From positions 27,973 to 91,972 of the forward strand of contig JBEKDT010000019.1 of the NCBI GenBank assembly GCA_050014195.1: 64,000 bases of DNA. Reading direction: 5' to 3'. The stretch is from Desulfomonilia bacterium. Lineage in GTDB: Bacteria > Desulfobacterota > Desulfomonilia > UBA1062. Numbering within the stretch: position 1 is the stretch's first letter; every line of letters begins with the position of its first letter. Positions 4,261 through 61,548 of the stretch are shown in pieces. A program made the position numbers and the translations under genes. The notes beneath the pieces were generated by a model, which had not been told where the DNA came from, made no database searches, and was given only the letters and a program-made list of their open reading frames with translations.

Positions 4261-4314
4261 AAGATCATCAGTTTCTAGGCATTTCAAAACTAGAAAGTTA
4301 TCGCAGTTATCAAC
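4261..4314 (-). repeat. cassette-boundary repeat, copy E1 (5' half plus core)
   Basis: 41/54 ungapped identity to 5001-5054; begins 50 bp after the SRPBCC stop. Confidence 0.85.
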
Positions 4315-4364
4315 GGCTTAGCCAATATGAATAGTCTGATCAGAAAACTATACCGGGATGGAGA

Positions 4365-4853
4365 TCAATGGTTTTTTTCCATAAAGGCCTTAAGAGAAAG
4401 GGCGGCTTTATGACACATATTTCCAAAAAACCATCTTCCGATTGGCCCTAACAATTTGCTAAGTAGCCTGGGTTCGTAAGCTACGATATAGGTAAATTTA
4501 GTTTTTCCTTGGCCTAACGGTTCCAGCCGGTAATCTTCGCAGAGAGCATTTACAATAGGACGATTGATTGCAGTTAAAAAAAAGGTGAATCGCTTTCCGG
4601 GATCCCAAGCAATAAATTGTTCATACACTGTCATGGGTTTGAGGGTTACTGTTCTAGTAGTACCCACACCAAACGGTTTAGGACTTGTCCATTCTACTTT
4701 GATGATATCTTTGAACCACTTAGGCCAGGCTTCTCCATCTTCAAAAACTTTAAACACCTGCTCTGGAGAAGCATTGATTTCCACCTCATTTACAAATCGG
4801 AGAGGTGCCGATTCCAAAAAACTTAAGTCAACTGAACGACAATTGAATTTCAT
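4365..4853 (-). CDS. SRPBCC (polyketide cyclase/dehydrase-like) family protein
   Basis: INASPEQVF...WPKWF...GVGTTR...E...WDPGKRF pattern; GGAGG RBS. Confidence 0.88.
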   Translation of the reverse strand: MKFNCRSVDLSFLESAPLRFVNEVEINASPEQVFKVFEDGEAWPKWFKDIIKVEWTSPKPFGVGTTRTVTLKPMTVYEQFIAWDPGKRFTFFLTAINRPIVNALCEDYRLEPLGQGKTKFTYIVAYEPRLLSKLLGPIGRWFFGNMCHKAALSLKAFMEKNH

Positions 4854-4935
4854 ACCATCCTCCTATTTCAGTATATTATGAATATAATATTAATAGAATA
4901 TTAAAAAGCAAGATAATGGGGGATTTTTTAAAGAG

Positions 4936-5055
4936 TGTTGATACTGGGTGCCATTTGATACACACAGATATGGACTGCTTTAATGCATAGGTTTCAAACA
5001 CAGATCTTCAGTATTCAGGCATCTCAAAACCGTGATGAAATCGCAGTTATCAACA
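4936..5055 (-). repeat. cassette-boundary repeat, copy E2 (full, long class)
   Basis: GAGTGTTGATA...TATCAACACTC terminal inverted repeat; starts 1 nt after the upstream gene's TGA; homologous to 49695-49806 and 61433-61548. Confidence 0.9.
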
Positions 5056-5056
5056 C

Positions 5057-6787
5057 TCACAAAATCTTTACGCCTTTGAAAGTAAATTCTGGACTTATAG
5101 TCATAGCATCAACCATCTGGAGTTTACCTTCTTTTATCCGGTAGATTCCGAGGATGTAACATGATGAATTCCGCCATCCGAAATAGGCATTCCCTAATTT
5201 AACAATAAAACATTCCTTTCCGTTTGATAAGGGAAAGTACTCAGATCCGTGGGACTCAAGAAAATCAAACTCGTTATAAGATGAATGGAATGATTTACTA
5301 TTAATAAACCTAAGCTGTTCATTGTAATCCTTGTCCACATCAATGTAAGATGTTTTATCAGGTTGCTGTTGATTTATTTTTAAAATGAGCATGCGGTAAT
5401 ACTTGGAGCCATTTGATTCAAATGCCAAGTGGCAAACAATCTCTTTTATGCCCTTGTTCTCAATATCCAGATACTGGTATTGACTTTCTTTCTGAAGGAA
5501 ATTTTCTTTATAATCTCTCTTTACAATAGCCACTACTATATTCTCAACTTTCTCTGCAGGATAAGTCCATTCGGGGTTATTCATGAGAGATGTTGCTATG
5601 GGTGAAAAACCTGCCGAAAAATTCCTTGCAAGGGCATTTGCCTTTTCTTCAAGCACTTTAAATGACGGGTCATATTGATTGACGAGATTACCATGAAATT
5701 GTGTAGAATATGTGACTTCTATTTTGCCAAGACCACTTCTGCCCTTTACATTCTTAAGGCTGAACAGTTCGATGATGGTCTTTGGTTGATCATTTGCTGC
5801 ATTATTGAGGAAATTATCTACAACAGCGATATATGTGCGTCTATCTATATGTACAAAACCGAGTGATGTAGCCCAGCAGATACCCCCTTCATCTTCATAC
5901 TGATCTATAAAAGGGCCTTCTATTTTAACCAGTGATTTGTCACTATTCACATGGAAGAATTGAAAACGGTCGCAGTGCATTGTTCCTGCAGTATTATCAA
6001 GGATAATATCTTTGATGCCATCCTGCTCGACATCTTCGAGATAAAGGTCGGTCCTGGTTGAAGTGTTATTTAAGGTTGCTTCTATATCTGATACTTGCTC
6101 TTGGGTGGGTTTGTAATTCTTGCTGATGTAATCTAATATCGATTCTTTATTTCCATCACCTAAATTGTTCTTAATACTATCCTCAGTAAATCCTAATGAA
6201 GATACAATCAATCTCCCTGGCTCAAATGGAGTTGTTCTGATACGCTCTGCAAGCTTTTTGCGAACCTCCAAACACTCTTGCGTATCCCAATTTTTATACA
6301 ATACAACACGGTCTTCATAGAATTTTTTCAGACGGGATTTCTGATAGGTTTTAATATCTATATGTTTTATTTGTGCCTTACCAGGGTTCTTCGCTGCACG
6401 CTTTTGCATTCTCAACTCTTTCCATTCTGCAAATCTTTGCCATTCTTCCCATCTTGCATCTCTTTGCCTTAGCCATTCACCCTGAGATGCAATGAATTCC
6501 TCCCTTTGATTTTGAGTCATTCCTTTTTGGGCTAATTCAAAGAGCCTATTCATCTCTGAATCTACTTCAACAAGTTCAGGGTCGGAACAGATGGCATTGT
6601 CGACAGGTGTCGTGGCCTTTTGGCAATTTAAACCGGAGACTGCAGTCGTTTCCGTTGTACTTCCTTTGGATATTAGAAATGCAAGAGAGAAGATAGAAAT
6701 CATGAAGGCAAAGAAGACAATTTGAGTATAAAATTTCAGTTTATCGATTTTGACCTTCTGCAACAAGTGCGTCCCCCTCTCAATCAA
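5057..6787 (-). CDS. membrane-anchored protein with LprI/DUF1311 domain
   Basis: N-terminal hydrophobic segment then LNCQKATTPVDNAICSDPEL...SQGEWLRQRD; low GC; start uncertain. Confidence 0.75.
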   Translation of the reverse strand: MIERGTHLLQKVKIDKLKFYTQIVFFAFMISIFSLAFLISKGSTTETTAVSGLNCQKATTPVDNAICSDPELVEVDSEMNRLFELAQKGMTQNQREEFIASQGEWLRQRDARWEEWQRFAEWKELRMQKRAAKNPGKAQIKHIDIKTYQKSRLKKFYEDRVVLYKNWDTQECLEVRKKLAERIRTTPFEPGRLIVSSLGFTEDSIKNNLGDGNKESILDYISKNYKPTQEQVSDIEATLNNTSTRTDLYLEDVEQDGIKDIILDNTAGTMHCDRFQFFHVNSDKSLVKIEGPFIDQYEDEGGICWATSLGFVHIDRRTYIAVVDNFLNNAANDQPKTIIELFSLKNVKGRSGLGKIEVTYSTQFHGNLVNQYDPSFKVLEEKANALARNFSAGFSPIATSLMNNPEWTYPAEKVENIVVAIVKRDYKENFLQKESQYQYLDIENKGIKEIVCHLAFESNGSKYYRMLILKINQQQPDKTSYIDVDKDYNEQLRFINSKSFHSSYNEFDFLESHGSEYFPLSNGKECFIVKLGNAYFGWRNSSCYILGIYRIKEGKLQMVDAMTISPEFTFKGVKIL

Positions 6788-6910
6788 AAAAGATATGATA
6801 CATAATTACCATATTTAGTTAAAACAATGCATCCAGCTTTTGTTGTCCGTGTAAGTCTTGATATAGACCCACTTATGAATATACCACCGTAACTTTTATT
6901 GACCACTGAC

Positions 6911-6972
6911 TGTTGATAACGTGCCATGAGTTACGTTTTGCCCATACTGAATATCTCTTTTGATAATCTCTC
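6911..6972 (-). repeat. cassette-boundary repeat, copy B1 (core plus 3' half, short class)
   Basis: 41/59 ungapped identity between 6911-6969 and 51004-51062. Confidence 0.85.
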
Positions 6973-6992
6973 CCTCCTCAACTCAGTGTGAA

Positions 6993-7013: not shown

Positions 7014-7069
7014 TCTGAGAACAAAAGAAAAAGGCTAACAAGTTAGTATCTGTAAGCCAATGTTATTAT

Positions 7070-7260: not shown

Positions 7261-7434
7261 AATCTTATGGCTCCCCGGGTAGGACTCGAACCTACAACCT
7301 AGTGGTTAACAGTCACTTTAATTGACTATCACTTAGAATCACAAAAAAGCACATAGATATTGACAAACAGACCATTTGAGCGTATATGTATATCACATTC
7401 GATCATTTTTGAAACCATATTTCCACCGATAAAA

Positions 7435-7454
7435 TGGGGAGAGGATGGGGAGAG
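7435..7454. promoter_or_regulatory. putative integrase arm-type sites (2 x TGGGGAGAG)
   Basis: same motif pair with 11-bp period recurs at 14046-14064 at the other island end. Confidence 0.65.
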
Positions 7455-7477
7455 AATAATATTATTAAGGAGAGTTC

Positions 7478-8701
7478 GTGATGCCCGTGAAATGGATTCA
7501 AACAAATTATCCTGGTGTCCGTTATTACGAACACAAATCAAGAAAACATGGATTGAAGCCAGATCGATATTATGCGATTCGATATCAGAAAGATGGCAAA
7601 AGAAAAGAAGAGGGTCTAGGGTGGGGTAGTGACGGATGGACTGCTCAAAAGGCTTTATTCGAACTAGCAGAGCTGAAAGAGGCATATGTAACTGGCAATG
7701 GTCCAAGCAGACTCTCAGATAGAAGAAAACTTGTTCAAGAGGAGAAAGAAATTAAGGATGAAGCCGAAAAGAAAACCGCGCTTGAACGGATAACATTTGG
7801 AGAGTTTTTCAAGACGACGTACTATCCAACTGCTCAAACAAGCAAAAAGATAACGAGCTATGAGAAAGAGGACACATTATATAGGATCTGGATCGAACCG
7901 ATCATCGGAGAGAAACCCTTTAAACAGATTACCCAGATTGATATCGAGCGAATAAAGAAAAGACTTCTAGATAAAGATAGAGCCCCAAAGACCATAGAGT
8001 ATGTTTTTGCAGTTATCAGGCAAGTATGGAATATGGCTCGGCGAGAGGGTCATATTGATGTTGACTCACCTACTAAGATAGTCAGGAAACCAAAGAGGGA
8101 TAATCGACGATTGAGGTTTCTAAGCAGAGAAGAAGCATATGATTTACTTGACCATATAAAGACTAGAACTCCCCAACTGTATAATATATCTCTTCTCTCA
8201 TTACATACAGGAATGCGCGCAGGAGAGATATTTCCGCTAACTTGGGGAGATATTGATTTAAATCGAAAGATAATAACTATACGAGATCCTAAGAATACTC
8301 AGAATAGAGCTGCATACATGACATCTGAAGTTGAAAAAATGTTTATAGGTATGGAACGTAAGGGACATGATGATCTTGTTTTTCAAGACAAGCGACATGG
8401 TAACAGAATCAAAGAAGTATCCCATGTGTTCCGTTTGATAATAGATGAACTTGGTTTAAATAAAGATGTGACTGATCCACGCCAGAAAGTTGTATTCCAT
8501 ACTCTAAGACATACCTTTGCTTCGTGGTTAGTAGAAGGTGGGACTGATCTATATATTGTCAAGGAACTCATGGGTCATAGCACACTGAGAATGACAGAAC
8601 GATATTCGCATGTTGGGCAAAATGCCTTGCAAAGTGCGGTTAAAAATCTTGATATGAGTTTAAGCAAACATTCTAAAGCTTATCTCAAGAAGGAGGTTTA
8701 A
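7478..8701 (+). CDS. tyrosine integrase
   Basis: HTGMRAGEI, HTLRH, LMGHS, RYSH catalytic motifs; N-terminal arm-binding-like region. Confidence 0.97.
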   Translation: MMPVKWIQTNYPGVRYYEHKSRKHGLKPDRYYAIRYQKDGKRKEEGLGWGSDGWTAQKALFELAELKEAYVTGNGPSRLSDRRKLVQEEKEIKDEAEKKTALERITFGEFFKTTYYPTAQTSKKITSYEKEDTLYRIWIEPIIGEKPFKQITQIDIERIKKRLLDKDRAPKTIEYVFAVIRQVWNMARREGHIDVDSPTKIVRKPKRDNRRLRFLSREEAYDLLDHIKTRTPQLYNISLLSLHTGMRAGEIFPLTWGDIDLNRKIITIRDPKNTQNRAAYMTSEVEKMFIGMERKGHDDLVFQDKRHGNRIKEVSHVFRLIIDELGLNKDVTDPRQKVVFHTLRHTFASWLVEGGTDLYIVKELMGHSTLRMTERYSHVGQNALQSAVKNLDMSLSKHSKAYLKKEV

Positions 8702-9007
8702 CAAGACGAACCTGAATTGATATCCATGCTACAAAGTCATAAAAGCACCTGGCGCTCTATATTCTTTACTGATGAACACTTCTCATATAATACTATATTG
8801 TTAAATATAATTGTACCCCACCATGAAATGATTCATCAACCAAGAGAAGAGCGGTCTGGAATCTAACGCAGTTTTATCATTCACCATGTAATTGATAGTA
8901 TATATTATTTTATGGATGCTATGTGATTGCATTACATATTGTAGCAACAAGCATTTACTGAACTAGGGGGTCGATGACCAAAAAGAAGCTGACTTGGAGG
9001 TTACAAA

Positions 9008-9283
9008 ATGAAAAGAATAGCGATAATTCTATTGACACTCTTAATCTTCGGCTGTGTCTCTTACCCGAATCTTCCTATCCACAAAGGAATGACAAGAGAT
9101 GAAGTCCGAGCTAACTTTGGTCCCACATACTGCATATATACATCCACGATAGGGGACTACCACACAGAAATCTGGACTTATACCAAGCAATATGGTGAGT
9201 TAATGTGGGATGCACCGCCTTGCTCTGGTGTTTATAAAATAATCTTTAAAGATGACGTAGTTTATGGTTGGGAAAATTTCTAG
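9008..9283 (+). CDS. small lipoprotein (SmpA/OmlA-like)
   Basis: signal peptide with IFGC lipobox; GMTRDEVRANFGP; GGAGG RBS. Confidence 0.7.
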   Translation: MKRIAIILLTLLIFGCVSYPNLPIHKGMTRDEVRANFGPTYCIYTSTIGDYHTEIWTYTKQYGELMWDAPPCSGVYKIIFKDDVVYGWENF

Positions 9284-9763
9284 GAGGACTCATGAACATC
9301 GGAGATTGTATCAAATGTAAAAAAAATTTCTTATGACCGGAGGTTCCCTGCAAGGCAAAAAGACCTTCACTCTCGGCAAGACTTACGATCATTGAGAAGC
9401 TTTGGATTTAAAAAAGTCATTACTTTTCCGATTTTGTTTAACAATATATTAACACGTAGAATGGCTCCCTGCCGCGCACCATGCCCATGTTTAACAAAGT
9501 CCTGTAGTAAATGACCCCCATCCCTCTCCGCATGTTTTTTACTTACCATCCCCGTTAGGTCAACTACAATTCAACATATTGCTAGATATGCCTTCTCCTT
9601 ACAGTTTTCGTTTATTCAGTTACATGGCATGCTCTGCTCCCTAGTAAGTTGAACGAAGAAATTAAGTATCTTTTGAGAATTATAGATACCAAACTATATT
9701 TTATTTCAATGATTTAAATTGACATCAACCCCCCGCTTAAGGTAATTTAAAAAAAATTAAAAA

Positions 9764-10021
9764 ATGAAAGGAGCCCTCTATATGAGGAGACCAACACCGC
9801 CTCAGTCAGAGATAGAATACATTCAAGTAAAAAAAGCATTCTGCTACTTAAGGGACATTGCCGAAGTGTCTCTGGACGTAATTGGGAAGCACTGTAACCG
9901 TCATCCAGGATCTATCTTGCAATATAGAAGTAGAACCCGAATAACCCCACCAGCTATCCGATTGAAGTTGATCGAGTTGGCGAAAAATCATGGATATGAC
10001 CCAACAAAAATGATCGAGTAA
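9764..10021 (+). CDS. small HTH-like (Cro-type) protein
   Basis: 85-aa ORF upstream of Xis-like and helicase genes; helix-turn-helix-like segment SLDVIGKHCNRHPGSILQY. Confidence 0.5.
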   Translation: MKGALYMRRPTPPQSEIEYIQVKKAFCYLRDIAEVSLDVIGKHCNRHPGSILQYRSRTRITPPAIRLKLIELAKNHGYDPTKMIE

Positions 10022-10063
10022 CTTTCACAAAAGTAGCAACCCAAATTGATGAAGGAGTAATTT

Positions 10064-10342
10064 ATGAAACAAGGAAGACAACTGCGTCAAAAACCAGATC
10101 TATCTGCGATGAAGAGAAACTGGGAAGCACCATATGTAGTTAGAAGACAGAAGGAGCTAGACAAATTTTCGGGTGGTATTCTCAATGCAAGGACACTTGC
10201 TAACCTCGATTCTAAAGGTTTGGGACCAAAGGGAAGAGTAAAGATAGGCAAGAAAGTAGCTTATCCTACTCTAAGTTTGGTTGCATGGATGGAAGAGAGA
10301 GGAGAAGCATGTGGCACCGATGTATATTTCAGGCAGATATAA
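10064..10342 (+). CDS. excisionase/AlpA-like DNA-binding protein
   Basis: RTLANLDSKGLGP...KIGKKVAY...LVAWME winged-HTH pattern; AAGGAG RBS. Confidence 0.7.
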   Translation: MKQGRQLRQKPDLSAMKRNWEAPYVVRRQKELDKFSGGILNARTLANLDSKGLGPKGRVKIGKKVAYPTLSLVAWMEERGEACGTDVYFRQI

Positions 10343-11378
10343 TGAATATAAAGTCATTTCTTTAGATAAACTCCTTGAAAAGGATTTGAAGAGTGAGCCT
10401 ATCATTGAAGGGGTGCTAGATAGGCGTGAAAGTCTTGAGATATGCGGAAAAGGGGGTGTAGGAAAATCAGTCCTTAGTCTCAATATTGGTCTTTACTTAG
10501 CGTGCCCCCATATATGCAGCTCTCTTTTATCTAATGAAGGACCACCATATTCTCTATTTGGTTTATGGTCTATACCAAAGTCGGTAAAGACCTTGTTTAT
10601 TCAATCTGAAAACTCTTCACGAGCAACAATAGCTAGAGCGGAAAAGATCTTCTCAGGAAACCCTAAATTCAGAGAAGGTGCAGATAAGATATTCATGCCC
10701 ATAGACAATAATGATGAAATAATCATCAGTGGGCCGCTTACAGATTCACAGTTCCAAGATGCAGTAATGAATTTAATAACATCCTGTTCTATAGATGTAG
10801 TTATTATTGATCCTCTGATTTCCTTTCATGATAAGGATGAGAATGACAATGCAAGGATGAGAGAAAGCTTAAATTGCCTTACAGAAATAATGACAAAAAC
10901 AAGAGTGGCGACAATCATCATACATCATGTTGGCAAAAATAACACAAACAATGAGGGCCGTGGCGCATCTTCAATCGGAGATTGGGCACACAATATAATG
11001 CTTGTTGATAATATTTATGTCCATAAAGGAGAGACGGGCATAGCACCAGCTTTACGAGTTACGCATACTAAGTCAAGAAATCATGAACTAACACCTGAAT
11101 TCGCACTCATTAGAGATGAAAACCTTATTTATAGGAGGTGTTCATCAGGTGAGAAAGAAGAATCTCATGAAAAAGAACTCAAAGGAGTTGTGGCTGCCTT
11201 ACAAGCTTTGGGGGGTAAGACAGATACACAGGCCGAGTTAGTAGAATCTGTCGTGAAGATAGTAGGATGTAAGACATCTAAGGCTAAGGAATTAATAACA
11301 GGAGCATCCGTGAAAAAGTTAATCATGCCGGTGCAAGGGGGGAAGACTATTGGATATCGACTATCCGAAAATGTATGA
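10281..11378 (+). CDS. AAA-family ATPase/RepA-like helicase
   Basis: Walker A GKGGVGKS, Walker B VIIDP, DENDN, IIHH..K, GRGASS; start may be 10320. Confidence 0.88.
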   Translation: MHGWKREEKHVAPMYISGRYNEYKVISLDKLLEKDLKSEPIIEGVLDRRESLEICGKGGVGKSVLSLNIGLYLACPHICSSLLSNEGPPYSLFGLWSIPKSVKTLFIQSENSSRATIARAEKIFSGNPKFREGADKIFMPIDNNDEIIISGPLTDSQFQDAVMNLITSCSIDVVIIDPLISFHDKDENDNARMRESLNCLTEIMTKTRVATIIIHHVGKNNTNNEGRGASSIGDWAHNIMLVDNIYVHKGETGIAPALRVTHTKSRNHELTPEFALIRDENLIYRRCSSGEKEESHEKELKGVVAALQALGGKTDTQAELVESVVKIVGCKTSKAKELITGASVKKLIMPVQGGKTIGYRLSENV

Positions 11379-11379
11379 T

Positions 11380-11590
11380 TGGCCACACGGCCACAATGGC
11401 CATAAAGATTATGTGGCCATACATAATTATTTAATATCATGGGCGATATTAACTAATTTTGTAAAGCCACGAGGCCTTTTGCCAAAACCCCCCGTGGCCA
11501 AGCATAACCCATTGATATTAAAGGAAAGCCACAATGTCACATGGCCACTATAAAGGATATTGTCGTGGCCAAAGAAATTGGCCCACGAAA
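11380..11590. other. putative replication origin with GGCCA/GCCAC iteron-like repeats
   Basis: about 10 short repeats in both orientations, AT-rich core, IHF consensus on the minus strand at 11505-11517. Confidence 0.6.
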
Positions 11591-11650
11591 TACCTGTAAA
11601 CTTTATAGCCGAATTTTTTGCAACCAAAGAGATAATTGGGAGATATTAAG

Positions 11651-12058
11651 ATGAAAGACCTTGAAACGAAAAAGAAATTTGTAGAGCTAAGAGCTTCCGG
11701 CCACAGCTATGCAAAGATCTCTACTGAGTTGAAGGTTTCAAAGCCCACCCTCATCAAATGGGGGAAGCAGCTTGAAAAAGACATAGCCGAGTTGAAGGAT
11801 GCCATGATGCAAGATATCCACCTTCAATTTCAAATTTCAAAAGAGGCACGCAAACAGGTATTGTCCTGGCAACTCTTCCTCATACTTGACGCGCTGCGTT
11901 CACGAGATTTGACCAACGTGAAAACAGAGAAGCTCATGGATCAGCTAGTGAAGACCACCAACGCCCTTGACCGGATCGAAACAAAAGAAGGCCCCCCTGA
12001 TCCCTTTGAGGAAATGTTAAAGGATGCAAAGGCTATAGCTCAACAAAGAAAGGGTTAG
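11651..12058 (+). CDS. HTH protein, possibly terminase-small-subunit-like
   Basis: FVELRASGHSYAKISTELKVSKPTLIKW N-terminal HTH followed by helical region. Confidence 0.6.
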   Translation: MKDLETKKKFVELRASGHSYAKISTELKVSKPTLIKWGKQLEKDIAELKDAMMQDIHLQFQISKEARKQVLSWQLFLILDALRSRDLTNVKTEKLMDQLVKTTNALDRIETKEGPPDPFEEMLKDAKAIAQQRKG

Positions 12059-12147
12059 AAAGCAGTGAATATAGGCACATCCTGAGACATGTGTTGGCGG
12101 TATTAATTATAGAAAACGGACAAGTTAAAGTAAATAAAGGAGTAATC

Positions 12148-12504
12148 ATGAAATACACAAAAGAAGATATAAAAAAATATGCAGTGCAGTATATTGAATC
12201 AGATGATCTAACAAGAGAATGGATTGAGAGCTTAAACTTTGATGATGATTCACTCAGAGTTTTTAAATGGGAAGCAGAAAATATTAGAGGGCAAAAGTGT
12301 TACGATTATTTGACAGATGTTTATCAACCAGAAGGAAAACTTATAGAAATAGCCTTCTCAATAAGACAAGAAGTTTGGATGGAGATTGATAATTATAAAC
12401 AATTATCAAAAGATCTTAGAAAGTTTTTTAGGAATCATCATAAGAAGGATCATCCAGTGCTTTCTAATCTGTTAAATAAAGATTGTCTTAAGAAATTAAT
12501 TTAG
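12148..12504 (+). CDS. hypothetical protein
   Basis: AT-rich ORF with AAGGAG RBS before ATG 12148. Confidence 0.55.
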   Translation: MKYTKEDIKKYAVQYIESDDLTREWIESLNFDDDSLRVFKWEAENIRGQKCYDYLTDVYQPEGKLIEIAFSIRQEVWMEIDNYKQLSKDLRKFFRNHHKKDHPVLSNLLNKDCLKKLI

Positions 12505-12572
12505 TTAGTTGTAATAACCAAGATCCGATCATACATAGCAGATTATGTAGCTAAGATTCCTTCGTGTGCTCT

Positions 12573-12634
12573 TAGAGATCTTTTCACAAAACCTTTAGTC
12601 TAGGCTAAGCGTTGGCTATGGTACGAAATCAACA
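12573..12634 (+). repeat. cassette-boundary repeat, degenerate copy B4 (short class)
   Basis: TAGAGATC ... TGGTACGAAATCAACA with the 51-bp spacing seen in B1-B3. Confidence 0.45.
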
Positions 12635-12820
12635 TATAGGGCATCTTATTTCAAACGCCACAGTTTGTCCAAGATCTTCACTATTTACCAACTCGATATC
12701 ACCTCAAGTTATATTAAGACATTTCATTTTGATCTTTACAAAGGTTAATAATTACCTTAATATATAATGCTTAAATTTAATATTATACATCTGGATATAT
12801 CATCTTCTGGGGGTTTATCT

Positions 12821-13777
12821 ATGAGTACAAGGGGCATCCTTAAGATCATAGGCTCAATTGCGTCTCTTTCCATGATCATGCTCTTAGTCAGCTGTGGTGG
12901 AGGTGGAGGAAACAATTCCACCAGCAACGCTGAGAATCAAGCGGCTGTTGAAGTTTCAGGGCGGATACTTGATAGCAGCAGCATTCCAGTTGAAGGAGCA
13001 ACTGTTACCTTTGCCAGTGTTCCTGTTGTTGTGACGACCGACAATTTGGGTAATTTTTCAGCCAAAGTTGCCCCTGGTGATCACACTATAACGGTCTCGA
13101 AGGACAACATAACGTTCTATCAGCAAGTATATACTGTCAATGAAGGACCGCCAATTTCTCTTGGTGACCTTTCACCAACAACTCCTTATTATCAAAATGG
13201 CGATGGCAGCAGCCCCAAGATTAACAATCTACAGATAGACTTTTCGACCAGTGACTGCATCATCACATGGCAAGTTTCCTCAATCTATGCTGTTGATTAT
13301 TTTACTCTAACAATTCAGGACTCTTCCTCTTTACCTGTAATCCATACCGAATCTCATCTCACAGGTTCTTCATTCACTTACACTTTCGTCATGAATGATG
13401 CTGACCATATTCATCAGGCTTCTCGTAATCTTTACATCGTCCTAACAGCCTATTCTTCCTCTGGACAAACTGTCTCTGAATCTGTCACTGCTTACAATCC
13501 TCCTCCTTCTCAAGTTCAACTTCCTACTATCACTGCTCTCATTTCTGGCTTAGAAATTCAATGGCCTATGGTTTCAGGGGATACCGTTTACTACGAGGTA
13601 GGTGTTTCTCCTACAGATCCTGAATCTGGTACTCTCTATCTTGTAACTAACAATGACATCACCATAGGAAACCTCCCATCAGTCTTAGAATATGTTGCCG
13701 TCCGAGCCTGCGATGCCTTCGGTCCTGGTCCTTGGTCTCCTTTTTCTTCCGACACACCCATTTCTCTCATCCTTTGA
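12821..13777 (+). CDS. lipoprotein with carboxypeptidase-regulatory-like domain and C-terminal FN3-like beta domains
   Basis: LVSCGGGGG lipobox; VSGRILDSSSIPVEGATV...TTDNLGNFS; VAVRACDAFGPGPWS FN3-like end. Confidence 0.75.
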   Translation: MSTRGILKIIGSIASLSMIMLLVSCGGGGGNNSTSNAENQAAVEVSGRILDSSSIPVEGATVTFASVPVVVTTDNLGNFSAKVAPGDHTITVSKDNITFYQQVYTVNEGPPISLGDLSPTTPYYQNGDGSSPKINNLQIDFSTSDCIITWQVSSIYAVDYFTLTIQDSSSLPVIHTESHLTGSSFTYTFVMNDADHIHQASRNLYIVLTAYSSSGQTVSESVTAYNPPPSQVQLPTITALISGLEIQWPMVSGDTVYYEVGVSPTDPESGTLYLVTNNDITIGNLPSVLEYVAVRACDAFGPGPWSPFSSDTPISLIL

Positions 13778-13981
13778 AACTATCCATTGGACCTTGTAGC
13801 ACATTACTTTAGCTTTCATTAGATCCACAAAAGGATAAAGATCATACCATTATCGCTACTCATAGACATGGGTTGAATAGTAGAGATCCCAATATAATGA
13901 AAATTGATATTCTTTGCGCGCGAGGGTAGCTCCCCTAAAAAAGGGGTGGGGGGGGGGTCGTGTTTTAAATCAGATCATTCC

Positions 13982-14025
13982 AACATTGACAATTCAGTCA
14001 CATACTAACATTGACTATTCAGTCA
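13982..14025. repeat. 19-bp direct repeat pair AACATTGACWATTCAGTCA
   Basis: 13982-14000 and 14007-14025, 1 mismatch; each contains TGAC-N6-GTCA. Confidence 0.85.
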
Positions 14026-14122
14026 GCATCATAAAGGTTAAAATGTGGGGAGAGAGTGGGGAGAAAATAGAGATAAACTAAAAAGGGCTTACAGGTGATA
14101 ACCCGTAAACCCTCTTGATATC

Positions 14123-14198
14123 TGGCTCCCCGGGTAGGACTCGAACCTACAACCTAGTGGTTAACAGCCACCCGCTCTGCCGATTGAGCTACCGAGGA
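14123..14198 (-). tRNA. tRNA-Asn (GTT)
   Basis: 76-nt cloverleaf TCCTCGG...CTGTTAA...GGTTCGAGTCC...GCCA with encoded CCA. Confidence 0.98.
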
Positions 14199-25477: not shown

Positions 25478-25722
25478 GGTTCTTGTCTGTGAAGCGTATC
25501 TTTTAGGAAGCTCTAAAGGTATTTTGAGGCAGATTGTTTTCACCACGAAGGACACGAAGAGCACGAAGAAAATCTAATCAATGCAGAACAAACACTCTTG
25601 CATTCATTGAACTGGTAAGCCATTTCAAAAGATTTCTTTCTTCGTGTACTTCGTGCTCTTCGTGGTAAGGTGTCCCTCTGCATGCTCTCCAATGGTCTGG
25701 GTATGCTTTACTGTGATGAACC
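25478..25722. mobile_element. MITE-like element with inverted 9-mer (CACGAAGrr) arrays, copy 1
   Basis: both ~80-90 bp arms match 61614-61944; imperfect ~22-bp terminal inverted repeats. Confidence 0.8.
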
Positions 25723-48269: not shown

Positions 48270-48361
48270 CCATATGAAGTGGACTGATTAACATAGTTAT
48301 CGATTCAAGATGTTCACCTTTCAGCGTTAGAGAGAGCGCTGATTTATCGCAGAGATCTATG
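48270..48361 (-). repeat. cassette-boundary repeat, copy E4
   Basis: aagatgttca...ttatcgcagagatctatg aligns ungapped with E1/E2; tggactg..catag shared with E2; GCATAGATCTCTGCGAT identical to E5. Confidence 0.75.
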
Positions 48362-48410
48362 CTATTGTCTGAGTGAAGTATATTGATCCGCAGACCTGCC
48401 ACTTATTAGT

Positions 48411-48677
48411 TTACGAGGGCCTTAGCAGATCCGAAATCACTTTTCCATTCTTATCCCGAGGGATCTCTGAGACGAACTTTATCTTTCTGGGAGTGTTATA
48501 AGAAACAAGCTTTTTGCAAGCATACTTTTTAACATCATCTCCGATGATGTATGGATCGTCACTGACTACATATGCCTTTATGACCGCGCCCCTCATGAGG
48601 TCAGGCTCACCGATTATGGTGGAATCATGTATACCATCCCTGGAATTGAGGACTTTTACAACCTCGCGGGAATTCAT
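48411..48677 (-). pseudogene. stand-alone AMP-binding enzyme C-terminal domain (probable fragment)
   Basis: IIGEPD.MRG.VIKAYVV...L.SY..PRKI.FV.EIPR...GKV. Confidence 0.65.
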
Positions 48678-48824
48678 GTGAGATCACTTGTATTATGAAA
48701 GGTATCCTTTATATATAAAGCTTATTTCATATCTATTAGGTGTATAAGTAGTGACTTCGCGAGCCTGTTGAACGCATTGAGAACGCCACGCTATCTTAAA
48801 GAACATAAGTATTGAAAAGGAGAT

Positions 48825-49079
48825 ATGATTATGGATAAAAAGATGATCGATTGGAAAAGCGTGGTAATAGGCATCTTACTCGGGGCCGGTGTCATATTGA
48901 TAGCAGCACAAAGTCAGAATGCGCGCGATCCGAGCCCTCAATGGCAAATCGCTGCCGGTAATTCGACATGGGTTATTAACACAGGGACGGGAGATATCTG
49001 GCAATTGATCGGACAGGGAGGTTCAACCGAAGCTTCATCCCAATATATATTACGATATGCAGGTAAGCCTTCGAAATAA
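48825..49079 (+). CDS. small hypothetical exported protein
   Basis: AAGGAG RBS; IDWKS plus hydrophobic segment; INTGTGDIW. Confidence 0.6.
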   Translation: MIMDKKMIDWKSVVIGILLGAGVILIAAQSQNARDPSPQWQIAAGNSTWVINTGTGDIWQLIGQGGSTEASSQYILRYAGKPSK

Positions 49080-49260
49080 GTAAAAAGGATCAATCACGCC
49101 CTGAAAATACGTTGCAGTCTGCCTGCCCACGGTTGTCCAGGTTCGTTCTGTTATCTACGGGTTCAATCTTGGATTCCCGGGCTGCTGAACAAGCCTTGGA
49201 TTTTTGTCTTCGTTCACAAGCCCTTGCTTTTTACGGATATGATAAAGAATGGAGGACGAT

Positions 49261-49584
49261 ATGGCCAAACTAATTAAACTTAAAGTTGATGAAGCAGATA
49301 TATGGATTGAGGCAGATGAAGATGTATTTGAGAAAGGTGTCCGGAAGGTGAGTGCAAGTGATTCCATGTAAAAGGCTACTATATCATTCCAAGAGATCTC
49401 TAATACAATCAAGGCATATTGCACCTCTTTTGTAAAAGCTATAAAAGGCTTTGACAATGAGTTGACTCCCAATGCTCTAAAAGCGGAATTTGGACTGAGA
49501 CTGAGTGGTGGAGGTAATGTCTATGTTGTGAAGACCGCTACAGAGGCAAGCTTAAAGATTACCGCCGAGTGGATAGTGAAATAA
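49261..49584 (+). pseudogene. trypsin-co-occurring domain (Trypco1/CU044_2847-like) gene with internal stop
   Basis: GGAGG RBS; reads ...DSM*KAT...PNALKAEFGLRL...KTATEASLKITAEW; TAA at 49369-49371. Confidence 0.7.
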
Positions 49585-49694
49585 ATGGCATTCTATTGAT
49601 TTGTATTAGCTACAACTTGATCTTACAAATCGAGAACCAATACTAAAACAGGATCTGACAGTGAACCCTTTTGCATATTCACAAAAAGTAGAAA

Positions 49695-49806
49695 GAACGT
49701 GCCACAAGTCACAATCAGAGCTGGCCTAATCTTTTCATAGATTATATTTCAAGATCATCGGTTTTTAGACTCTTAGAAACCATCGATAATATCGCAGGAA
49801 TCAACA
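49695..49806 (-). repeat. cassette-boundary repeat, copy E3 (long class)
   Basis: GTGCCA to ATCAAC distance 106 bp as in E2; shared tgg.ct, catag, agatc, atcgcag..atcaaca. Confidence 0.85.
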
Positions 49807-49831
49807 TTCTTGAGTTTACTTAAGATGAAAT

Positions 49832-49863
49832 AAAAAGCAGGGCCTGAGATTGACCCTGCCTTT
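49832..49863 (-). terminator. intrinsic terminator after PEP-CTERM gene
   Basis: GCAGGG..CCCTGC stem with T-run on the minus strand. Confidence 0.65.
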
Positions 49864-49884
49864 ATATTCTAATAAACTGAATCG

Positions 49885-50553
49885 TTATTTCTTCAGCTTC
49901 TTCCTGAACCCAGTAAGTCCGAGCAGGCCTGATCCGAGGAGCAGTAAAGTGGCGGGTTCGGGAACCGGCGCGGATGAAGTGGCAGAACCGGTTGTAAACT
50001 TTGTTATATCCATGCCATAGCCTTGTTCGGCAAAGGTAAGGCTCGTGATCGGCGTGTCCGAAGTAAAGCCGACGAATTCGGTAGTATTGAACGTCGGTAT
50101 AGCAAGGTTGTAAATGACGCCGTTGAGAGTCACCGTGATTGCCCCCTCTGCATCATCACCGGGACTATAGTAAAAACCTATCCCTGTTACGCCCGCCAAT
50201 GTTGCGGTCACGTAGGATAGATCAGCATTAGGCTGACCAGCTGTAGTTGACTGGCCGGAGAAGAATGCTACTCCGCCCAAGGTATTGGCATAGTAATTGG
50301 CGCCGATGAGGAACGGAATGTTGTTGGTGTTGGCTAAGGTATCAAATGTGACGCCTCCAACGGTGGTAGGGCCGATTGAATAGTTGTTGGGGGGGAGTGG
50401 TAGGACGATGCTATTGAAGTCGTACGTGGTCGGGCCCGAGACAGCGGCGTTGAAGGCTGCCATATTGGTATATTCGATGACGGAGGCGGAAACCGGTGCA
50501 GCGAAGCAGGCAAAAGCTAGAGCGGCAAATGCAAGACAATACTTTATTCTCAT
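49885..50553 (-). CDS. PEP-CTERM sorting domain protein
   Basis: signal peptide; VPEPATLLLLGSGLLGL..FRKKLKK; GAGGAG RBS. Confidence 0.96.
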   Translation of the reverse strand: MRIKYCLAFAALAFACFAAPVSASVIEYTNMAAFNAAVSGPTTYDFNSIVLPLPPNNYSIGPTTVGGVTFDTLANTNNIPFLIGANYYANTLGGVAFFSGQSTTAGQPNADLSYVTATLAGVTGIGFYYSPGDDAEGAITVTLNGVIYNLAIPTFNTTEFVGFTSDTPITSLTFAEQGYGMDITKFTTGSATSSAPVPEPATLLLLGSGLLGLTGFRKKLKK

Positions 50554-50621
50554 GATTAATCTCCTCAATAATTTATTAAACTCATTACAAAACCTTCAGC
50601 AAAGAGTTCAGTTTAAAATAA

Positions 50622-50790
50622 CGCAATTTTTATGCCTACATGCAACAAGCTGAAATTATTTAAATTAATTTTATCTCCCTCTGAAGGGTGTAAATTATTT
50701 CGACAGATCAATTTGATGTATATTCTTTATATGATAGATTTTATTGATAATTATATTAAAGCTCAGCTGTAAATTATTTCGACAGATCAA
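50622..50790 (-). promoter_or_regulatory. sigma54 promoter with two enhancer (TGT-N11-ACA) boxes
   Basis: AGGCAT-N5-TTGC at 50622-50637; 23-bp direct repeat TGTAAATTATTTCGACAGATCAA at 50689 and 50768. Confidence 0.8.
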
Positions 50791-50864
50791 CTTGAATTTA
50801 CATCTTAATATTAATATACTCTTAATATCTAATTGAATTTATTAATTTATATTATGACCTAACA

Positions 50865-50950
50865 AATGAACTACCCCGCCGCAAGCAGCGGGGTATCAAA
50901 AGCTTCTATAAGGAATAGACCTTTCGCAGCAAGCTGCGGGGAATTAACCC
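50865..50950 (+). repeat. small palindromic repeat element (CCCCGC.GCAAGC.GCGGGG family)
   Basis: two hairpins; inverted homolog at 52731-52930. Confidence 0.75.
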
Positions 50951-51003
50951 GGATGAGATTAAAAATATCAACAGCTCAATTTAATTATGTAACACCAGTG
51001 AAC

Positions 51004-51066
51004 TGTTGATCACGTGCCAAACACAACGGGGTAGCCATACTGAATATTTGAAATCATAATCTTCAC
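51004..51066 (-). repeat. cassette-boundary repeat, copy B2 (short class)
   Basis: 41/59 identity to 6911-6969; TGAAGAT-N11-ATATTCA core. Confidence 0.85.
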
Positions 51067-58408: not shown

Positions 58409-58534
58409 GTAGGAGCGGCTTTAGCCGCGACATCCAAAAATGGGTCGCGCCTGAAGGCGCTCCTACATCTCCATAATATGTTGCATGTTGTAGAAGCGGC
58501 TTAAGCCGGGATAATCGCGCCGGAAGGTACCTAC
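58409..58534. repeat. GTAG-type REP cluster (two pairs)
   Basis: GTAGGAGCGGCTTTAGCCGCGA / TCGCGCCTGAAGGCGCTCCTAC plus a degenerate second pair. Confidence 0.85.
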
Positions 58535-59931
58535 CTGACCGCATCCACGATATCAGCGATGAACCGGCCCTGGTCCCAGTTCTCGTCGGGATCGCTCAAC
58601 CCGAGGCGGACGATGACGAGTTTTTTCGAGGGCACCATGGATACATACTGTCCCTCAAAGCCGGCCAGGGAGTACATGTCTGGCGGGGCCCCGGGCATCC
58701 ACCTTTCATCCGGATTACCCGTATCACCTGCATTCAGCCAGAACTGGGCGCCGTACTTGCGTTTGGGGGCCTTGGGCGTGGGGGTTGTGCTGTACTTCAT
58801 CCACCCCTCGGGCAGGATGCGCTCTGCGTGCCATATACCGTCGTCGAGACAGAGCAGGCCGAAGCGCGCCCAGTCGCGCGCGGTTGCATACATGAAAGAA
58901 GAGCCCACGAAGGTACCGGAGGGGTCGGGCTCCATGACGGCACTTGCCATACCGATCTTATCGAACAGTGCATGGTGGGGAAAGACGAAATAATCGCGCA
59001 GAGATCCGCCCAGAGTTTGACGGACAATACGGGATATGATGTTCGCAGTCCCGCTCGAGTATTGCCAGCGGGAATCAGGCGCGACCTCTAGGGGCATCGA
59101 GGTGGCGAAGGCCCCGGCATCGGACCGTAAAAAGAGCATCCGAACCACGTCCGAGAACGGGTCTTTGTAGTCTTCCTTGAACTTGAGCCCGCTGCTCATG
59201 CGCATGAGCTCGTCTAAGGTTATGGCGCCGCGGGGGTCGCCGGGGGAGCGCCACTCAGATACAGGAGCCGGGTCTTTCAGTCTGAGCCTGCCTTCCTTGA
59301 CAAGGATGCCCACAAGGGCGTTCGTTATGCTCTTGGTCATGGACCAGCCGAGCTGCGGGGTGTCTCTGGTAAAGCCTAAGGCGTAATGCTCGGCAACGAT
59401 CCTGCCGTCATAGAGCACGATCACGGCCCGGGTCCTGCGGAGCCTTGCAGGGTCGGGTTCAATGAAGGCCGCCTCTACGACCTTTTTGAGCTTCGAGCCG
59501 TCGATGATCTTGGGCAGAGGTTCGTCCCGAATCAAGTCGCCGTCGGGCCAGGGGATATTTTCCCTATCCTCATGGACAGCCGTAAACCCGGCAGGTTGTT
59601 TTCTGAGAGCCTCAACACTCATACCCGCGGCAAGGGTGCAGCCGAGCCCATCCCGGTATAGGGCCGTGCGCTTTGCCATGCCGAGTATGGAACCGGTCAC
59701 GGTCTTGTTTTTGTAGTCTATGTCCGTACTGATGTAGCCGTACTTGCCGAGCTCCTCACGGAGCACCGAGGAAGGGTCGCGATGCGCCACAAAGACACAT
59801 GAGCACATGCGCTTGGCTGTATAGGCCGTGCCCACGGGCGCCACCTCGAGCATCAGGAAGGTGAATGCACCACAGCCAAGGACAACGAGCACGCCAAGGG
59901 CCCCGAGCAGCCATCGCAATGATCTCTTCAT
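58531..59931 (-). CDS. serine hydrolase, beta-lactamase-related
   Basis: WSMTKS (SxxK), LMRMSSGL, WQYSSG, ARDWARFG, GFEGQ. Confidence 0.9.
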   Translation of the reverse strand: MKRSLRWLLGALGVLVVLGCGAFTFLMLEVAPVGTAYTAKRMCSCVFVAHRDPSSVLREELGKYGYISTDIDYKNKTVTGSILGMAKRTALYRDGLGCTLAAGMSVEALRKQPAGFTAVHEDRENIPWPDGDLIRDEPLPKIIDGSKLKKVVEAAFIEPDPARLRRTRAVIVLYDGRIVAEHYALGFTRDTPQLGWSMTKSITNALVGILVKEGRLRLKDPAPVSEWRSPGDPRGAITLDELMRMSSGLKFKEDYKDPFSDVVRMLFLRSDAGAFATSMPLEVAPDSRWQYSSGTANIISRIVRQTLGGSLRDYFVFPHHALFDKIGMASAVMEPDPSGTFVGSSFMYATARDWARFGLLCLDDGIWHAERILPEGWMKYSTTPTPKAPKRKYGAQFWLNAGDTGNPDERWMPGAPPDMYSLAGFEGQYVSMVPSKKLVIVRLGLSDPDENWDQGRFIADIVDAVR

Positions 59932-60143
59932 GCAATCCTCCCCTTGAAAACGATCGTTTCCGGATAATAAACAGCGACATCCTTTCCATAAAAGGCTAAC
60001 AGCATGCACGGAAAATGCAAGGACTTTGCAGGGGATCATGCCCGTTCCGTCGCCGGATGCCGGCCTTGGCAATGGATAAGCGGGAAGCTCTTCAGCGAGG
60101 CAGATCTTAGAAGAATCAAGAGGGCTTAATAGCCCGTGGATAT

Positions 60144-60206
60144 GTGAAGATCAACCGACGAAATATTCAAGAGAGCCTTAGTGTCACTCTTGACACGATA
60201 GCTTCA
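60144..60206 (+). repeat. cassette-boundary repeat, copy B3 (short class, degenerate)
   Basis: GTGAAGAT-N11-ATATTCA...TGACACGATA; 29/45 ungapped identity to B1 reverse complement. Confidence 0.65.
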
Positions 60207-60465
60207 GCTTTGACCAAACATAGATGTGATCCCTTTGTGAATCACTGACACTCACTGTTGACTGCATCCTCAAATCAGCTTGGTTTGCCATTATTGGATT
60301 GGGGAGCAGGGTAAACCCACTCTCCCGAGCAGATTAAGCTCATTCTTTAATAAATGAATGTCAGTATATTTGTTGCAATATTTTCAATATCATTGTATAA
60401 TATTCTCCGTTTAATTGAAATTTAATAATTCTGGGTCCGTTAAAAACCATTTAGGGGGGTATATC

Positions 60466-61419
60466 ATGTTTAACAATTGTTTCTACAGCATCACTAGGGC
60501 TCTTGTGACTTTGTTTATTCTCTGTCTTCTTGTTGGCTGTGGCGGTGGAGGTGGCGGAACTACAGCAACAAATACCTCAACTGAATCGGCGAGCTCAATA
60601 ACAGGCATGGGGTGGTACTTCGAAAACAGTGCACTTGATTACTATAACAATGGCTCGACATGCACTTTGAAGGTTTTTTTGTATTACAGCGAATCGATTA
60701 CCACGGATGACATCGAGAGTGTCAGCGTGACTGCGCCCAATGGGAGTAGATGGTCAATTGCATTGTCGAATAGCCCTTTTGGTACCAGTAGCACGGGAAA
60801 ACCTTATATTATTGGTAGTCTTTTATATAGTGATAACCCAAATGCGTTCCCACTTGCGGGCATCTGGACTGTAGAGATCACGCTGAAGGAAGGTAAGACT
60901 TTATCGTTTCAGCGAACTCTCCATGAGCCGGGTAGCACAGATGATGCAACGCACCAATACCTATATACGAAGGAGGACTGGGCACCTTCTACGAATCCGT
61001 CGCAGTACATCGCGGCACTCAGTCGCTTTCCTTCACAGGGCTACACAGTACAATACTCTGCAGACGATGGTGGTAGTATAACGACCACAGGATTCTCTGC
61101 GGTGAGGTCGAGTTTCCTGGCAGCCGAGCCGAGAGCGTACAATATGTATTGCTGGCTTTATGATGCTAATTATACCTACCTCGGTAGAACAAATCCGGAA
61201 TATTCGACGCTGGATCATTCAAGTACAAACCTGATAACCGCAGACGGAGAAATCTTTATCGTGCCAGCGTCCACAATATCATCGGCCGGGTCTGGGTATG
61301 TTGACCTGTCCAAGGTTAAGTACATCAGATTTGTGAACACAGACGGTGCCCAATACGCGCCGTCGTCGTATTCGAGTATAGACTACCGCTCAATCTCGTC
61401 TCTCGTAGCACTGAATTGA
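60466..61419 (+). CDS. hypothetical lipoprotein
   Basis: LVGCGGGGGG lipobox, Ser/Thr-rich beta-type sequence. Confidence 0.8.
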   Translation: MFNNCFYSITRALVTLFILCLLVGCGGGGGGTTATNTSTESASSITGMGWYFENSALDYYNNGSTCTLKVFLYYSESITTDDIESVSVTAPNGSRWSIALSNSPFGTSSTGKPYIIGSLLYSDNPNAFPLAGIWTVEITLKEGKTLSFQRTLHEPGSTDDATHQYLYTKEDWAPSTNPSQYIAALSRFPSQGYTVQYSADDGGSITTTGFSAVRSSFLAAEPRAYNMYCWLYDANYTYLGRTNPEYSTLDHSSTNLITADGEIFIVPASTISSAGSGYVDLSKVKYIRFVNTDGAQYAPSSYSSIDYRSISSLVALN

Positions 61420-61432
61420 AGGGGAACGAAAG

Positions 61433-61548
61433 CATAGATCTCTGCGATTTCTTCTTGGTTTTAGGATGACAGAAAATTGAAGATCTTGGGATTAAACATA
61501 CGAAACTATCCCTTCATATCAGAGCGTGTCCTCTGGCACGATATCAAT
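61433..61548 (+). repeat. cassette-boundary repeat, copy E5 (full, long class)
   Basis: 36/45 ungapped identity to E2 from CTGCGAT to GAAGATCT; ends TGGCACGATATCAAT; 13 bp after stop. Confidence 0.9.

Follow-up and report, generated by a model that had tools for sequence, protein, structure and literature searches.

We analysed a 64,000-nucleotide (nt) stretch of the genome of a Desulfomonilia bacterium (contig JBEKDT010000019.1, positions 27,973 to 91,972; the window from here on), in which short non-coding repeats, here called A and B, lie on either side of small accessory genes. The source genome, G000, comprises 4.2 Mb in 29 contigs, with the window at C19:27973-91972, and near-identical DNA is present in many peat and wetland metagenomes. 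Labels in the style of G001 denote relatives (G002, G003, G007 and so on), C numbers contigs and L numbers extracted stretches; the relatives with named records are metagenome-assembled (Desulfomonilia or 'delta proteobacterium') and all compared genomes are multi-contig drafts. The window carries nine sites, five A-type and four B-type loci (Table 1). In the flexible genome of a Desulfomonilia genus from peat, A and B mark the edges of small accessory modules, which are AT-rich and mostly hold a single gene.

A sequence-only reading of the window had reported nine related non-coding sites, and all nine are present. The four genes that it described as bracketed by them are also as named: a Polyketide_cyc2/SRPBCC gene, a gene with an LprI domain, a PEP-CTERM gene and a gene for a lipobox-like protein of 334 amino acids (aa). 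Its hand-counted identities were reproduced (77% over 53 nt for 4262-4314 against 5002-5054; 73% complementary over 64 nt for 4988-5051 against 61437-61500), and no A or B copy occurs in the core block of the window, 12.6-48.2 kb, as it had stated. It had treated the sites as one family. All nine are indeed related, but the short 62-nt sites form a separate family, B, with 55 loci, and are not degenerate A copies. Coordinate subtraction places the window B copies ~120-440 nt upstream of the start of the enclosed gene, and A lies at most ~100 nt past the stop codon where gene and A are co-oriented. The B copy at 12574-12635 has no A copy downstream.

Table 1. Repeats, unit genes and related elements. 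Plain coordinates refer to the window; other locations are given by genome, contig or extracted stretch.
Feature	Location	Strand	Basis or remark
Left half of an A-type site: left box, hairpin-bearing L arm and central box	4245..4316	-	sharp end at ...GATGATCTT; profile census
SRPBCC/Polyketide_cyc2 unit gene, 162 aa	4365..4853	-	Pfam domain
A-type full copy	4942..5057	-	profile census
Unit gene, 576 aa, weak LprI domain	5057..6787	-	domain match
B-type copy upstream of 576-aa LprI-domain gene	6906..6970	-	profile census
B-type copy in tRNA-Asn island, upstream of 336-aa CarboxypepD_reg protein	12574..12635	+	profile census
A-type copy, right end truncated (model positions 2-103)	48275..48363	-	profile census
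88-aa open reading frame within array, AMP-binding C-terminal domain only (gene fragment)	48411..48677	-	domain match
A-type full copy	49685..49808	-	profile census
PEP-CTERM unit gene, 227 aa	49885..50568	-	domain match
B-type copy upstream of PEP-CTERM gene	51000..51066	-	profile census
B-type copy	60143..60210	+	G003 homology ends within right box, right after ...CACGA
Unit gene, 334 aa, lipobox-like N-terminus, no Pfam hit	60415..61419	+	Pfam search
A-type full copy	61431..61553	+	orthologous copy in G003
IS1182-family element and short derivatives	G000:C3:13185-14950; C8:10266-11195; C4:219931-220077; L050 8223-10069		at A central box or box-like sequences
Group II intron copies	L035 (G000:C24) 1841-2475; G000:C12 near 100,350 and 102,560		
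Bona fide integrons, IntI 440-467 bits	G008 L086 11326-15171; G007 L094 9893-18986; G002 L093 1648-8974		

The A repeat is ~120 nt long and consists of a left box, an L arm, a central GAAGATCT box, an R arm and an inverted right box. In the gene direction used by the sequence-only reading, the left box is AGTGTAGATTAC-TGCGAT and the L arm holds a short AT-rich hairpin, CGGTTTT...AAAACTG. The central box is CTGAAGATCTTG with a palindromic core, AAGATCTT; the R arm is TTGAAACATACG...CAGAGCGTG; and the right box, ATGGCACGTAATCTACACT, is the left box inverted with one extra base. The B repeat, at ~65 nt, resembles the right half of A, starting with a central-type box, GATGATTATC, and ending with TTGGCACG and an outer arm. 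Both are built from one ~12-nt box type, (A/T)GAT(C/T)(T/A), often found inside AGTGTAGATTAC, of which A has three (left direct, central palindrome, right inverted) and B two. At the family level the terminal inverted boxes span ~18 nt; some copies carry GATAAC...GTTATC ends, and the family consensus is GATTAC...GTAATC with variable arms. The modules are also found combined: B follows A after 16-17 nt, via a conserved linker, TTTTCCATGCCCCTCTTTT, in six A-B composites, and an inverted left half abuts a full A copy at four places. A small peptide encoded in the right flank was considered and rejected, as hand translation gave just a 14-codon frame; the conserved flank is a B copy.

An nhmmer profile built from four window copies matched sequences throughout the genome far beyond chance (E down to 7e-27), in agreement with the earlier description of a dispersed family, and the iterated search gave 79 matches at E<1e-3. 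A census with separate profiles for the whole site, the left half and the right half identified 93 A loci in G000, comprising 58 full copies, 22 left halves and 13 right halves. For B there were 55 hits, 49 without overlap to A loci, and 55 loci after filtering, so that A and B together account for 148 loci. Almost all of these (141) lie outside open reading frames (ORFs) of at least 100 aa, compared with only 14% of the genome; ORFs here are crude calls (longest ORFs, without a gene finder), and the same threshold applies to the unit counts below. Relatives were searched with R1, a sequence-only covariance model of A, using default filters. This detected the A family in 12 of the 14 other species of the genus (84, 68, 65, 51, 24, 12, 8, 8, 6, 3, 1, 1, 0 and 0 copies) and in three other genera of the same family, with matches in 0 of 16 genomes of the sister family.

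The arrangement of the sites is strongly ordered. Among neighbour pairs, defined as sites no more than 4 kb apart, 52 of 70 are co-oriented, and orientation is uniform in 13 of the 21 clusters with at least three sites. Thirty B copies have a downstream neighbour within 4 kb, and in 21 of these a co-oriented A or left half lies downstream, giving the order B-gene-A, and such modules follow one another head to tail. Co-oriented neighbours enclose 45 units, which have 41.8% GC, against 50.2% for the genome, and hold one ORF in 27 cases, two in 8, three in 4 and none in 6. Their genes are unrelated to one another (SRPBCC, LprI-domain, PEP-CTERM, lipoprotein-like, CarboxypepD_reg, RNB nuclease, NTP_transf_8 and alpha/beta hydrolase). 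The sites thus bracket mostly single, unrelated accessory genes in co-oriented arrays, as had been proposed. The further proposal that sites and genes point in the same direction was borne out in the window only. Genome-wide, full A copies share the strand of their upstream ORF in 29 cases and differ from it in 27, and for ORFs within co-oriented units the same-strand and opposite-strand counts are 34 and 21. Site orientation is coupled between sites, not strictly to genes.

The A copies are old, with a median pairwise identity of 64% and only one of 703 pairs reaching 90%. Divergence is nevertheless distributed very unevenly along the repeat. Seventeen columns are at least 90% conserved, whereas 500 shuffles in which the mismatches of each copy were spread evenly had on average 0.38 such columns and never more than 3, and the standard deviation of column identity is 0.187 against 0.071 in the shuffles. 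The conserved positions recur in a copy belonging to another genus. That particular positions are so strongly kept although the copies are old argues for selection on these sequences and for something that reads them.

These data bear on one alternative, an ordinary decaying family of miniature transposable elements with inverted repeats (MITEs) that has no present function, whose clustering would reflect insertion tolerance and whose mosaics would be partly assembly mis-joins. The inverted terminal boxes and a copy number ranging from 0 to 84 between species are as expected of such a family; G000 also holds other short repeat families and miniature elements derived from insertion sequences (IS), and the draft or metagenome-assembled nature of the compared genomes leaves room for mis-joins. 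Against it, column conservation is unlike neutral decay and highly similar pairs are almost absent. Neither the co-orientation of neighbours nor the strict B-gene-A order fits, and the B and A junctions around one swapped gene (below) are kept in two independent assemblies. We also found no target-site duplications around 37 full A copies: for k=3-9 over a grid of end offsets, own flanks never matched above mispaired flanks (at k=5, 2 own-flank matches against a control mean of 1.75), although the age of the copies could have erased such duplications. The sequence-only reading had named duplications around each copy as the mark of a plain MITE. Taken together, we consider this alternative very unlikely.

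Folding of the repeats was then compared with that of shuffled sequences. For 38 copies the mean z-score of the minimum free energy was -0.58/-0.73 (top/bottom strand) with RNA parameters and -0.74/-0.57 with DNA parameters, and the left and right arms of a copy were no more complementary than random pairs (-4.81 against -4.69 kcal/mol, p=0.31). A structured RNA was rejected, because RNAalifold returned no consensus and a mutual-information scan no helix; for two candidate consensus hairpins, 74.6% of cells pair (shuffles: 75.4%), and the covariation score was equalled or exceeded by 485 of 500 shuffles. Rfam 15 at the gathering threshold recovered only tRNA-Asn in the window, and at E<=0.1 gave no match on any copy in 21 kb with at least seven copies. 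A sigma-54 promoter in the motif TGGCAC was rejected by inspection, since the -12 GC is absent.

A second alternative is that A and B are cis-acting expression modules that travel with acquired genes, B serving as a 5' promoter, operator or leader and A as a 3' end, a stabiliser or a platform for a nucleoid or silencing protein; the layout of the sites would then follow from how genes are built and not from recombination of DNA. The spacing of B before gene starts in the window and of co-oriented A after stop codons would suit such roles, as would the position-specific conservation; AT-rich units are the usual target of silencing proteins, and the L-arm hairpin contains many G-T pairs, which fit the top strand only. 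Yet 21 of the 55 ORFs in units lie on the opposite strand and orientation is coupled between sites rather than to genes. Helix covariation, fold stability beyond shuffles and Rfam matches are all lacking. We therefore regard an expression role as unlikely.

The architecture of the arrays recalls integrons, and the third alternative is that the repeats are attC sites, in clusters lacking an integrase (CALINs) that are recombined by the IntI of related strains. No IntI is present in G000, where no TIGR02249 match exceeds the cut-off. Elsewhere in the genus IntI does occur, in 8 of its 15 genomes (345-467 bits; cut-off 265), and it is found in 12 of 31 sampled genomes of the family. In G008, G007 and G002, classical attC sites of ~60 nt (...AAC...CCACCGGACGGC...GCCGCCGGTGA...GTT...) are arrayed beside intI at a spacing of 0.6-3.7 kb. 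R1 found no A copies in the 68,671 + 81,179 (149,850) bases surrounding 14 intI loci; a partial intI in G003 is 15 kb away from the closest A copies, and G012 has IntI but no A copy. Since classical attC sites without A copies lie beside intI, and IntI occurs in G012 without A, A and B are not the attC sites of this lineage.

Other points in favour of attC are the GATAAC...GTTATC ends of some copies, which contain AAC...GTT, two breakpoints 1-2 nt from the expected G|TT in the right box, and a group II intron that lies antisense in the site, as group IIC-attC introns do in attC sites (PMC3001079). Set against these are the missing long imperfect palindrome (mean fold z of -0.6 to -0.7 on both strands), the lack of complementarity between arms and the unrelated sequence of the attC sites next to intI. 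The attC explanation is largely refuted and hardly credible. The fold, IntI and Rfam tests agree with the original assessment that the sites are neither classical attC nor dif sites; nor do they form an Rfam family. Separately, G000 has classical attC motifs as a pair 2.5 kb apart (C7:208,081-210,571), which may represent a small integrase-less attC cluster.

Selected genome parts of relatives were compared to examine how module content differs. In G003, whose flanks are ~94% identical to those in G000, B, A and both flanks are kept at 60143-61553, but the 1240 nt between them, which contain the lipoprotein gene, are replaced by 1303 nt without a BLASTN match. The left and middle parts of the A copy at this locus are ~19% diverged, compared with ~6% for the flanks. 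The SRPBCC unit (649 nt, 92% identical) is found at a non-orthologous place on another G003 contig, within a mosaic array whose units are dispersed among several contigs in G000. Homology begins in the upstream right box, at its outer arm, and continues as far as the downstream left half, to its left box. The left half at 4245-4316 and its flank are kept as an orthologous copy in G003, with homology from TGCGAT on; the outer arm and the upstream unit differ. At the truncated A copy, 48275-48363, G003 homology restarts a few nt past the repeat. In a comparison with G007, a gene and its entire downstream A are common to both genomes at 88% identity, and the upstream break lies ~50 nt past the previous A.

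A further locus lies between a gene for a 168-aa protein and citrate synthase. Here G000 has B, a PEP-CTERM gene and a left half, in G002 and G007 the place is taken by a transporter-like gene and in G003 by a gene for another membrane protein. The PEP-CTERM gene at 49885-50568 has paralogues on C4 and C11, which share the 3' end of the gene together with the left half of A. A search for empty sites at five loci against G003, G002 and G007 gave replacements and no clean insertions, and the G003 and G007 comparisons showed no case where an element alone was present or absent. The content of the modules is thus highly fluid; breakpoints tend to lie in or close to the repeats, without a single fixed base. 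That gene content between conserved sites differs among relatives is in line with the earlier interpretation, but the breaks do not fall at the sites consistently. In the same set of comparisons, a G003 segment orthologous to G000 C2:165143 onward occurs twice on G003:C22 (L052 10137-12042 and 17258-19177), each time after the same A copy; this reflects either a ~7-kb tandem duplication or an artefact of the assembly.

We then considered how half-sites arise. In G003 and on C8, an A copy is split by an IS1182-family element, with its left half directly on one side and its right half directly on the other. The element encodes a 524-aa transposase (NF033551, 311.7 bits against a cut-off of 270), has the ends GAGGGTGTCGAAAAA and occurs several times in G003. 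On C4 a left half is directly adjoined by a 145-nt derivative, and two further ends abut box-like sequences. Three A copies are interrupted by an ORF-less group II intron of ~635 nt (RF01999 114.8 bits, RF00029 52 bits), inserted antisense in the loop of the L-arm hairpin; the intron is 98% identical among them and their right halves are different. Such insertions explain a few half-sites only: for the majority of the 22 left halves, the repeat stops abruptly at the central box and unrelated DNA follows, with no IS or intron insert. Left halves ending in this way are the best point for the earlier idea of a central core. A crossover at the central TGAWGAT core, as that idea required, was nevertheless not established, and some half-sites are IS1182-family or intron splits.

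A recombinase or transposase that might act on the sites was sought in the same genomes, and none of five candidates, IntI among them, follows the repeat across the genus. A 364-aa tyrosine recombinase adjoining an array on C7 was rejected, being present in 0 of 14 other genus genomes, as was a 278-aa tyrosine recombinase beside a B copy on C8, present in 3 of 14. The Y1_Tnp family (PF01797) occurs in 12 of 14 other genomes, among them G012 with 0 copies of A, and is missing from G013, which has 6 copies and is 76% complete; it too was rejected. No rve transposase was found in G000, and the XerC/D-like genes on C9 and C1 appear, from their length and context, to be housekeeping genes. As observations on the C7 locus, the 364-aa recombinase is encoded by two identical genes (G000:C7:70048-71142 and 130745-131836), one of them lying divergently beside an A array, and C1:121982-122284 is a fragment 78% identical to it, with a TGA stop. 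Two adjacent units of the C7 array (G000:C7:66253-69048) hold genes for a 491-aa protein that resembles RNase II and has an RNB domain, and for a 348-aa nucleotidyltransferase of the NTP_transf_8 type.

These results allow the cassette interpretation of the sequence-only reading to be weighed. In the form considered here, it supposes a new, IntI-independent system for site-specific recombination in which single-gene circles are moved by a trans-acting recombinase at a defined core, either the central GAAGATCT box or the junction of outer and inner arms in the terminal boxes. The genus would then possess a second cassette system beside its classical integrons, with bipartite sites (B upstream, A downstream) recognised by sequence, through three ~12-nt boxes, and not by hairpin shape. 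Co-oriented arrays with a strict B-gene-A order and mostly single AT-rich ORFs are consistent with such a system, as are the old but position-constrained copies without target duplications, which functional selection on the sites would produce. Arrays start upstream with a module of the right-half type and finish downstream with a left half (from 6970 to 4245 in the window, for instance), left halves end sharply at the central box, and in four cases a breakpoint separates the outer arm of a box from its inner arm. Genes also occur in either orientation between inverted boxes, as inversion would give.

Other observations do not fit. No recombinase co-occurs with the sites, other breakpoints lie outside them, some half-sites are due to IS or intron insertion, and no empty site with a core sequence was found at the loci compared. 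Inspection of the boxes showed none of the usual core dyad of tyrosine recombinases. Finally, after extraction and alignment of the boxes with hmmalign, those flanking one gene or lying within one copy were no more alike than random pairs: the mean match between a right-box outer arm and the next left box was 0.539 for 28 adjacent pairs, compared with 0.55 for 51 own pairs and 0.56 for random pairs. The cassette interpretation is thus partly supported, and both the recombination mechanism and the existence of a second cassette system are real possibilities, but on balance we do not expect them to be correct.

Tentatively, with the balance falling slightly short of even, we read A and B as end sequences mobilised in trans or as module borders. 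The pattern fits sequence read by a protein at module borders, and not a plain MITE or attC. Most likely, the boxes would be binding or cutting sites for a DNA enzyme acting in trans, and the repeats would be the ends of non-autonomous elements, similar to mobile insertion cassettes or mosaic repeats and distinct from integron-type sites. Modules may be gained, lost and swapped at or near the repeats, partly through recombination between copies. Two elements of this reading go beyond the observed pattern and are inferred: recognition of the boxes by a protein, and a causal part of the repeats in exchange, as opposed to being carried along with it.

Several results weigh against the end-sequence or border reading. 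The array at 48275-51066 corresponds to one 357-aa ORF without repeats in G003; in all, three loci in relatives have a different gene and no repeat. A G003 unit flanked by a truncated B and A is present in G000 at 95% identity, where its ends have no repeats. Since different genes occur without repeats and a unit can be repeat-free, exchange does not need the repeats. A 2.77-kb, two-gene insertion in G003, which contains one A and one left half, has borders that are not at repeats, and at the citrate synthase locus the swapped segment begins 115 nt before B. Breakpoints are altogether inconstant, falling in the right box, in the left box, at the outer end of A or 50-115 nt outside the sites, and in three cases they are at least 50-115 nt outside. 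As the genomes are metagenome-assembled, some joins at repeats could be false. On the side of the machinery, IntI, rve, Y1 transposases and the two array-near tyrosine recombinases do not track A copy number, and the outer arms of the boxes co-vary neither within a copy nor across a gene unit. No autonomous element with these ends was found in G000: the only pairs of left half and right half are copies split by the intron (G000) or by the IS1182-family element (G003), and none encloses a transposase of its own.

Comparison with known systems places A and B between several categories. They share with integron cassettes and CALINs small, mostly single-gene AT-rich units between co-oriented non-coding sites of 60-130 nt, and with attC in particular diverged site sequences, the lack of target duplications and an antisense group II intron in the site. 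They differ from attC in having no hairpin palindrome, so that sequence positions and not structure are conserved, in forming two site types in fixed order with genes often inverted relative to the sites, and in that the integrons of the genus use classical attC with no A or B copy nearby.

Mobile insertion cassettes consist of inward-facing IS ends that flank passenger genes, are bounded by a target duplication and are mobilised in trans. Like these and like MITEs, A and B are short, non-coding and multi-copy, with inverted terminal boxes and no transposase of their own; they flank passenger genes, and their copy number varies widely between species. Unlike them, they have no target duplication, are old yet constrained, and have co-oriented neighbours, and no parent IS with these ends was found. 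Moreover, the boxes beside a gene face it with their outer arms, the reverse of the arrangement at transposon ends. In a comparison with mobile insertion cassettes, B-gene-A units do recur, for 21 of the 30 B copies that have a downstream neighbour, but a swapped segment starts 115 nt outside B at one locus, and no empty site with a duplication was found.

REP sequences are palindromes of 20-40 nt tied to RAYT transposases, as in enterobacterial BIME/REP, and BOX elements are known from pneumococci. By these descriptions, A and B resemble BIME, REP and BOX in being built from a few sub-motifs that are also found singly (left half, right half, B, A-B composites), in their intergenic position and in being genus-specific. 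They differ from BIME/REP because Y1 transposase genes do not follow A and B, there is no stable palindrome and the order around accessory genes is strict. The pdif sites of Acinetobacter are Xer sites, 28-bp dyads of 11-6-11, that bracket single-gene plasmid modules. Here the likeness lies in short sites of alternating orientation around small accessory modules in varied contexts, with a recombinase that is encoded elsewhere for pdif and would be so here; by inspection the A and B boxes have no such dyad and are paired 40-95 nt apart.

Other features of the window were recorded alongside the repeats. An island of ~6.9 kb in tRNA-Asn (7268-14198) carries a 407-aa tyrosine integrase at 7478-8701; 7268-7316 repeats the 3' end of the tRNA gene (14123-14171) at 98% identity, and G003 lacks the stretch 7316-14123 at the orthologous place. 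Copies of a second repeat family, ~330 nt long and containing internal inverted repeats (ACCACGAAGGACACGAAGAGCACGAAG...), lie at 61614-61942 and 25478-25720; the family gave 51 BLASTN hits on 17 contigs. The copy at 61614-61942 has no counterpart at the orthologous place in G003 and is thus an insertion. A third family of ~100 nt, at 58409-58512, gave 24 BLASTN hits on 18 contigs with a median identity of 90% and is also present in relatives. At 2052-2675 there is a tandem array of at least 11 copies of a 39-nt unit (61-90% identity) within the ORF 2130-2930, which probably codes for a 13-residue protein repeat.

A and B together are a real, constrained module-boundary repeat. Among the matches listed in a literature search, no paper, in the portions available, described this repeat or linked Desulfomonilia with integrons. 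If the repeats are only markers of flexible DNA, they would constitute a well-described new repeat family of an uncultured peat lineage, of use in annotating genomes and in assessing breaks in assemblies. Should they be active sites, they would form a platform for cassette shuffling unlike integrons, with recognition by sequence, two site types and genes in either orientation, in the same genomes as true integrons. This would bear on how soil bacteria assemble accessory genes, such as those for PEP-CTERM proteins, lipoproteins and nucleases.

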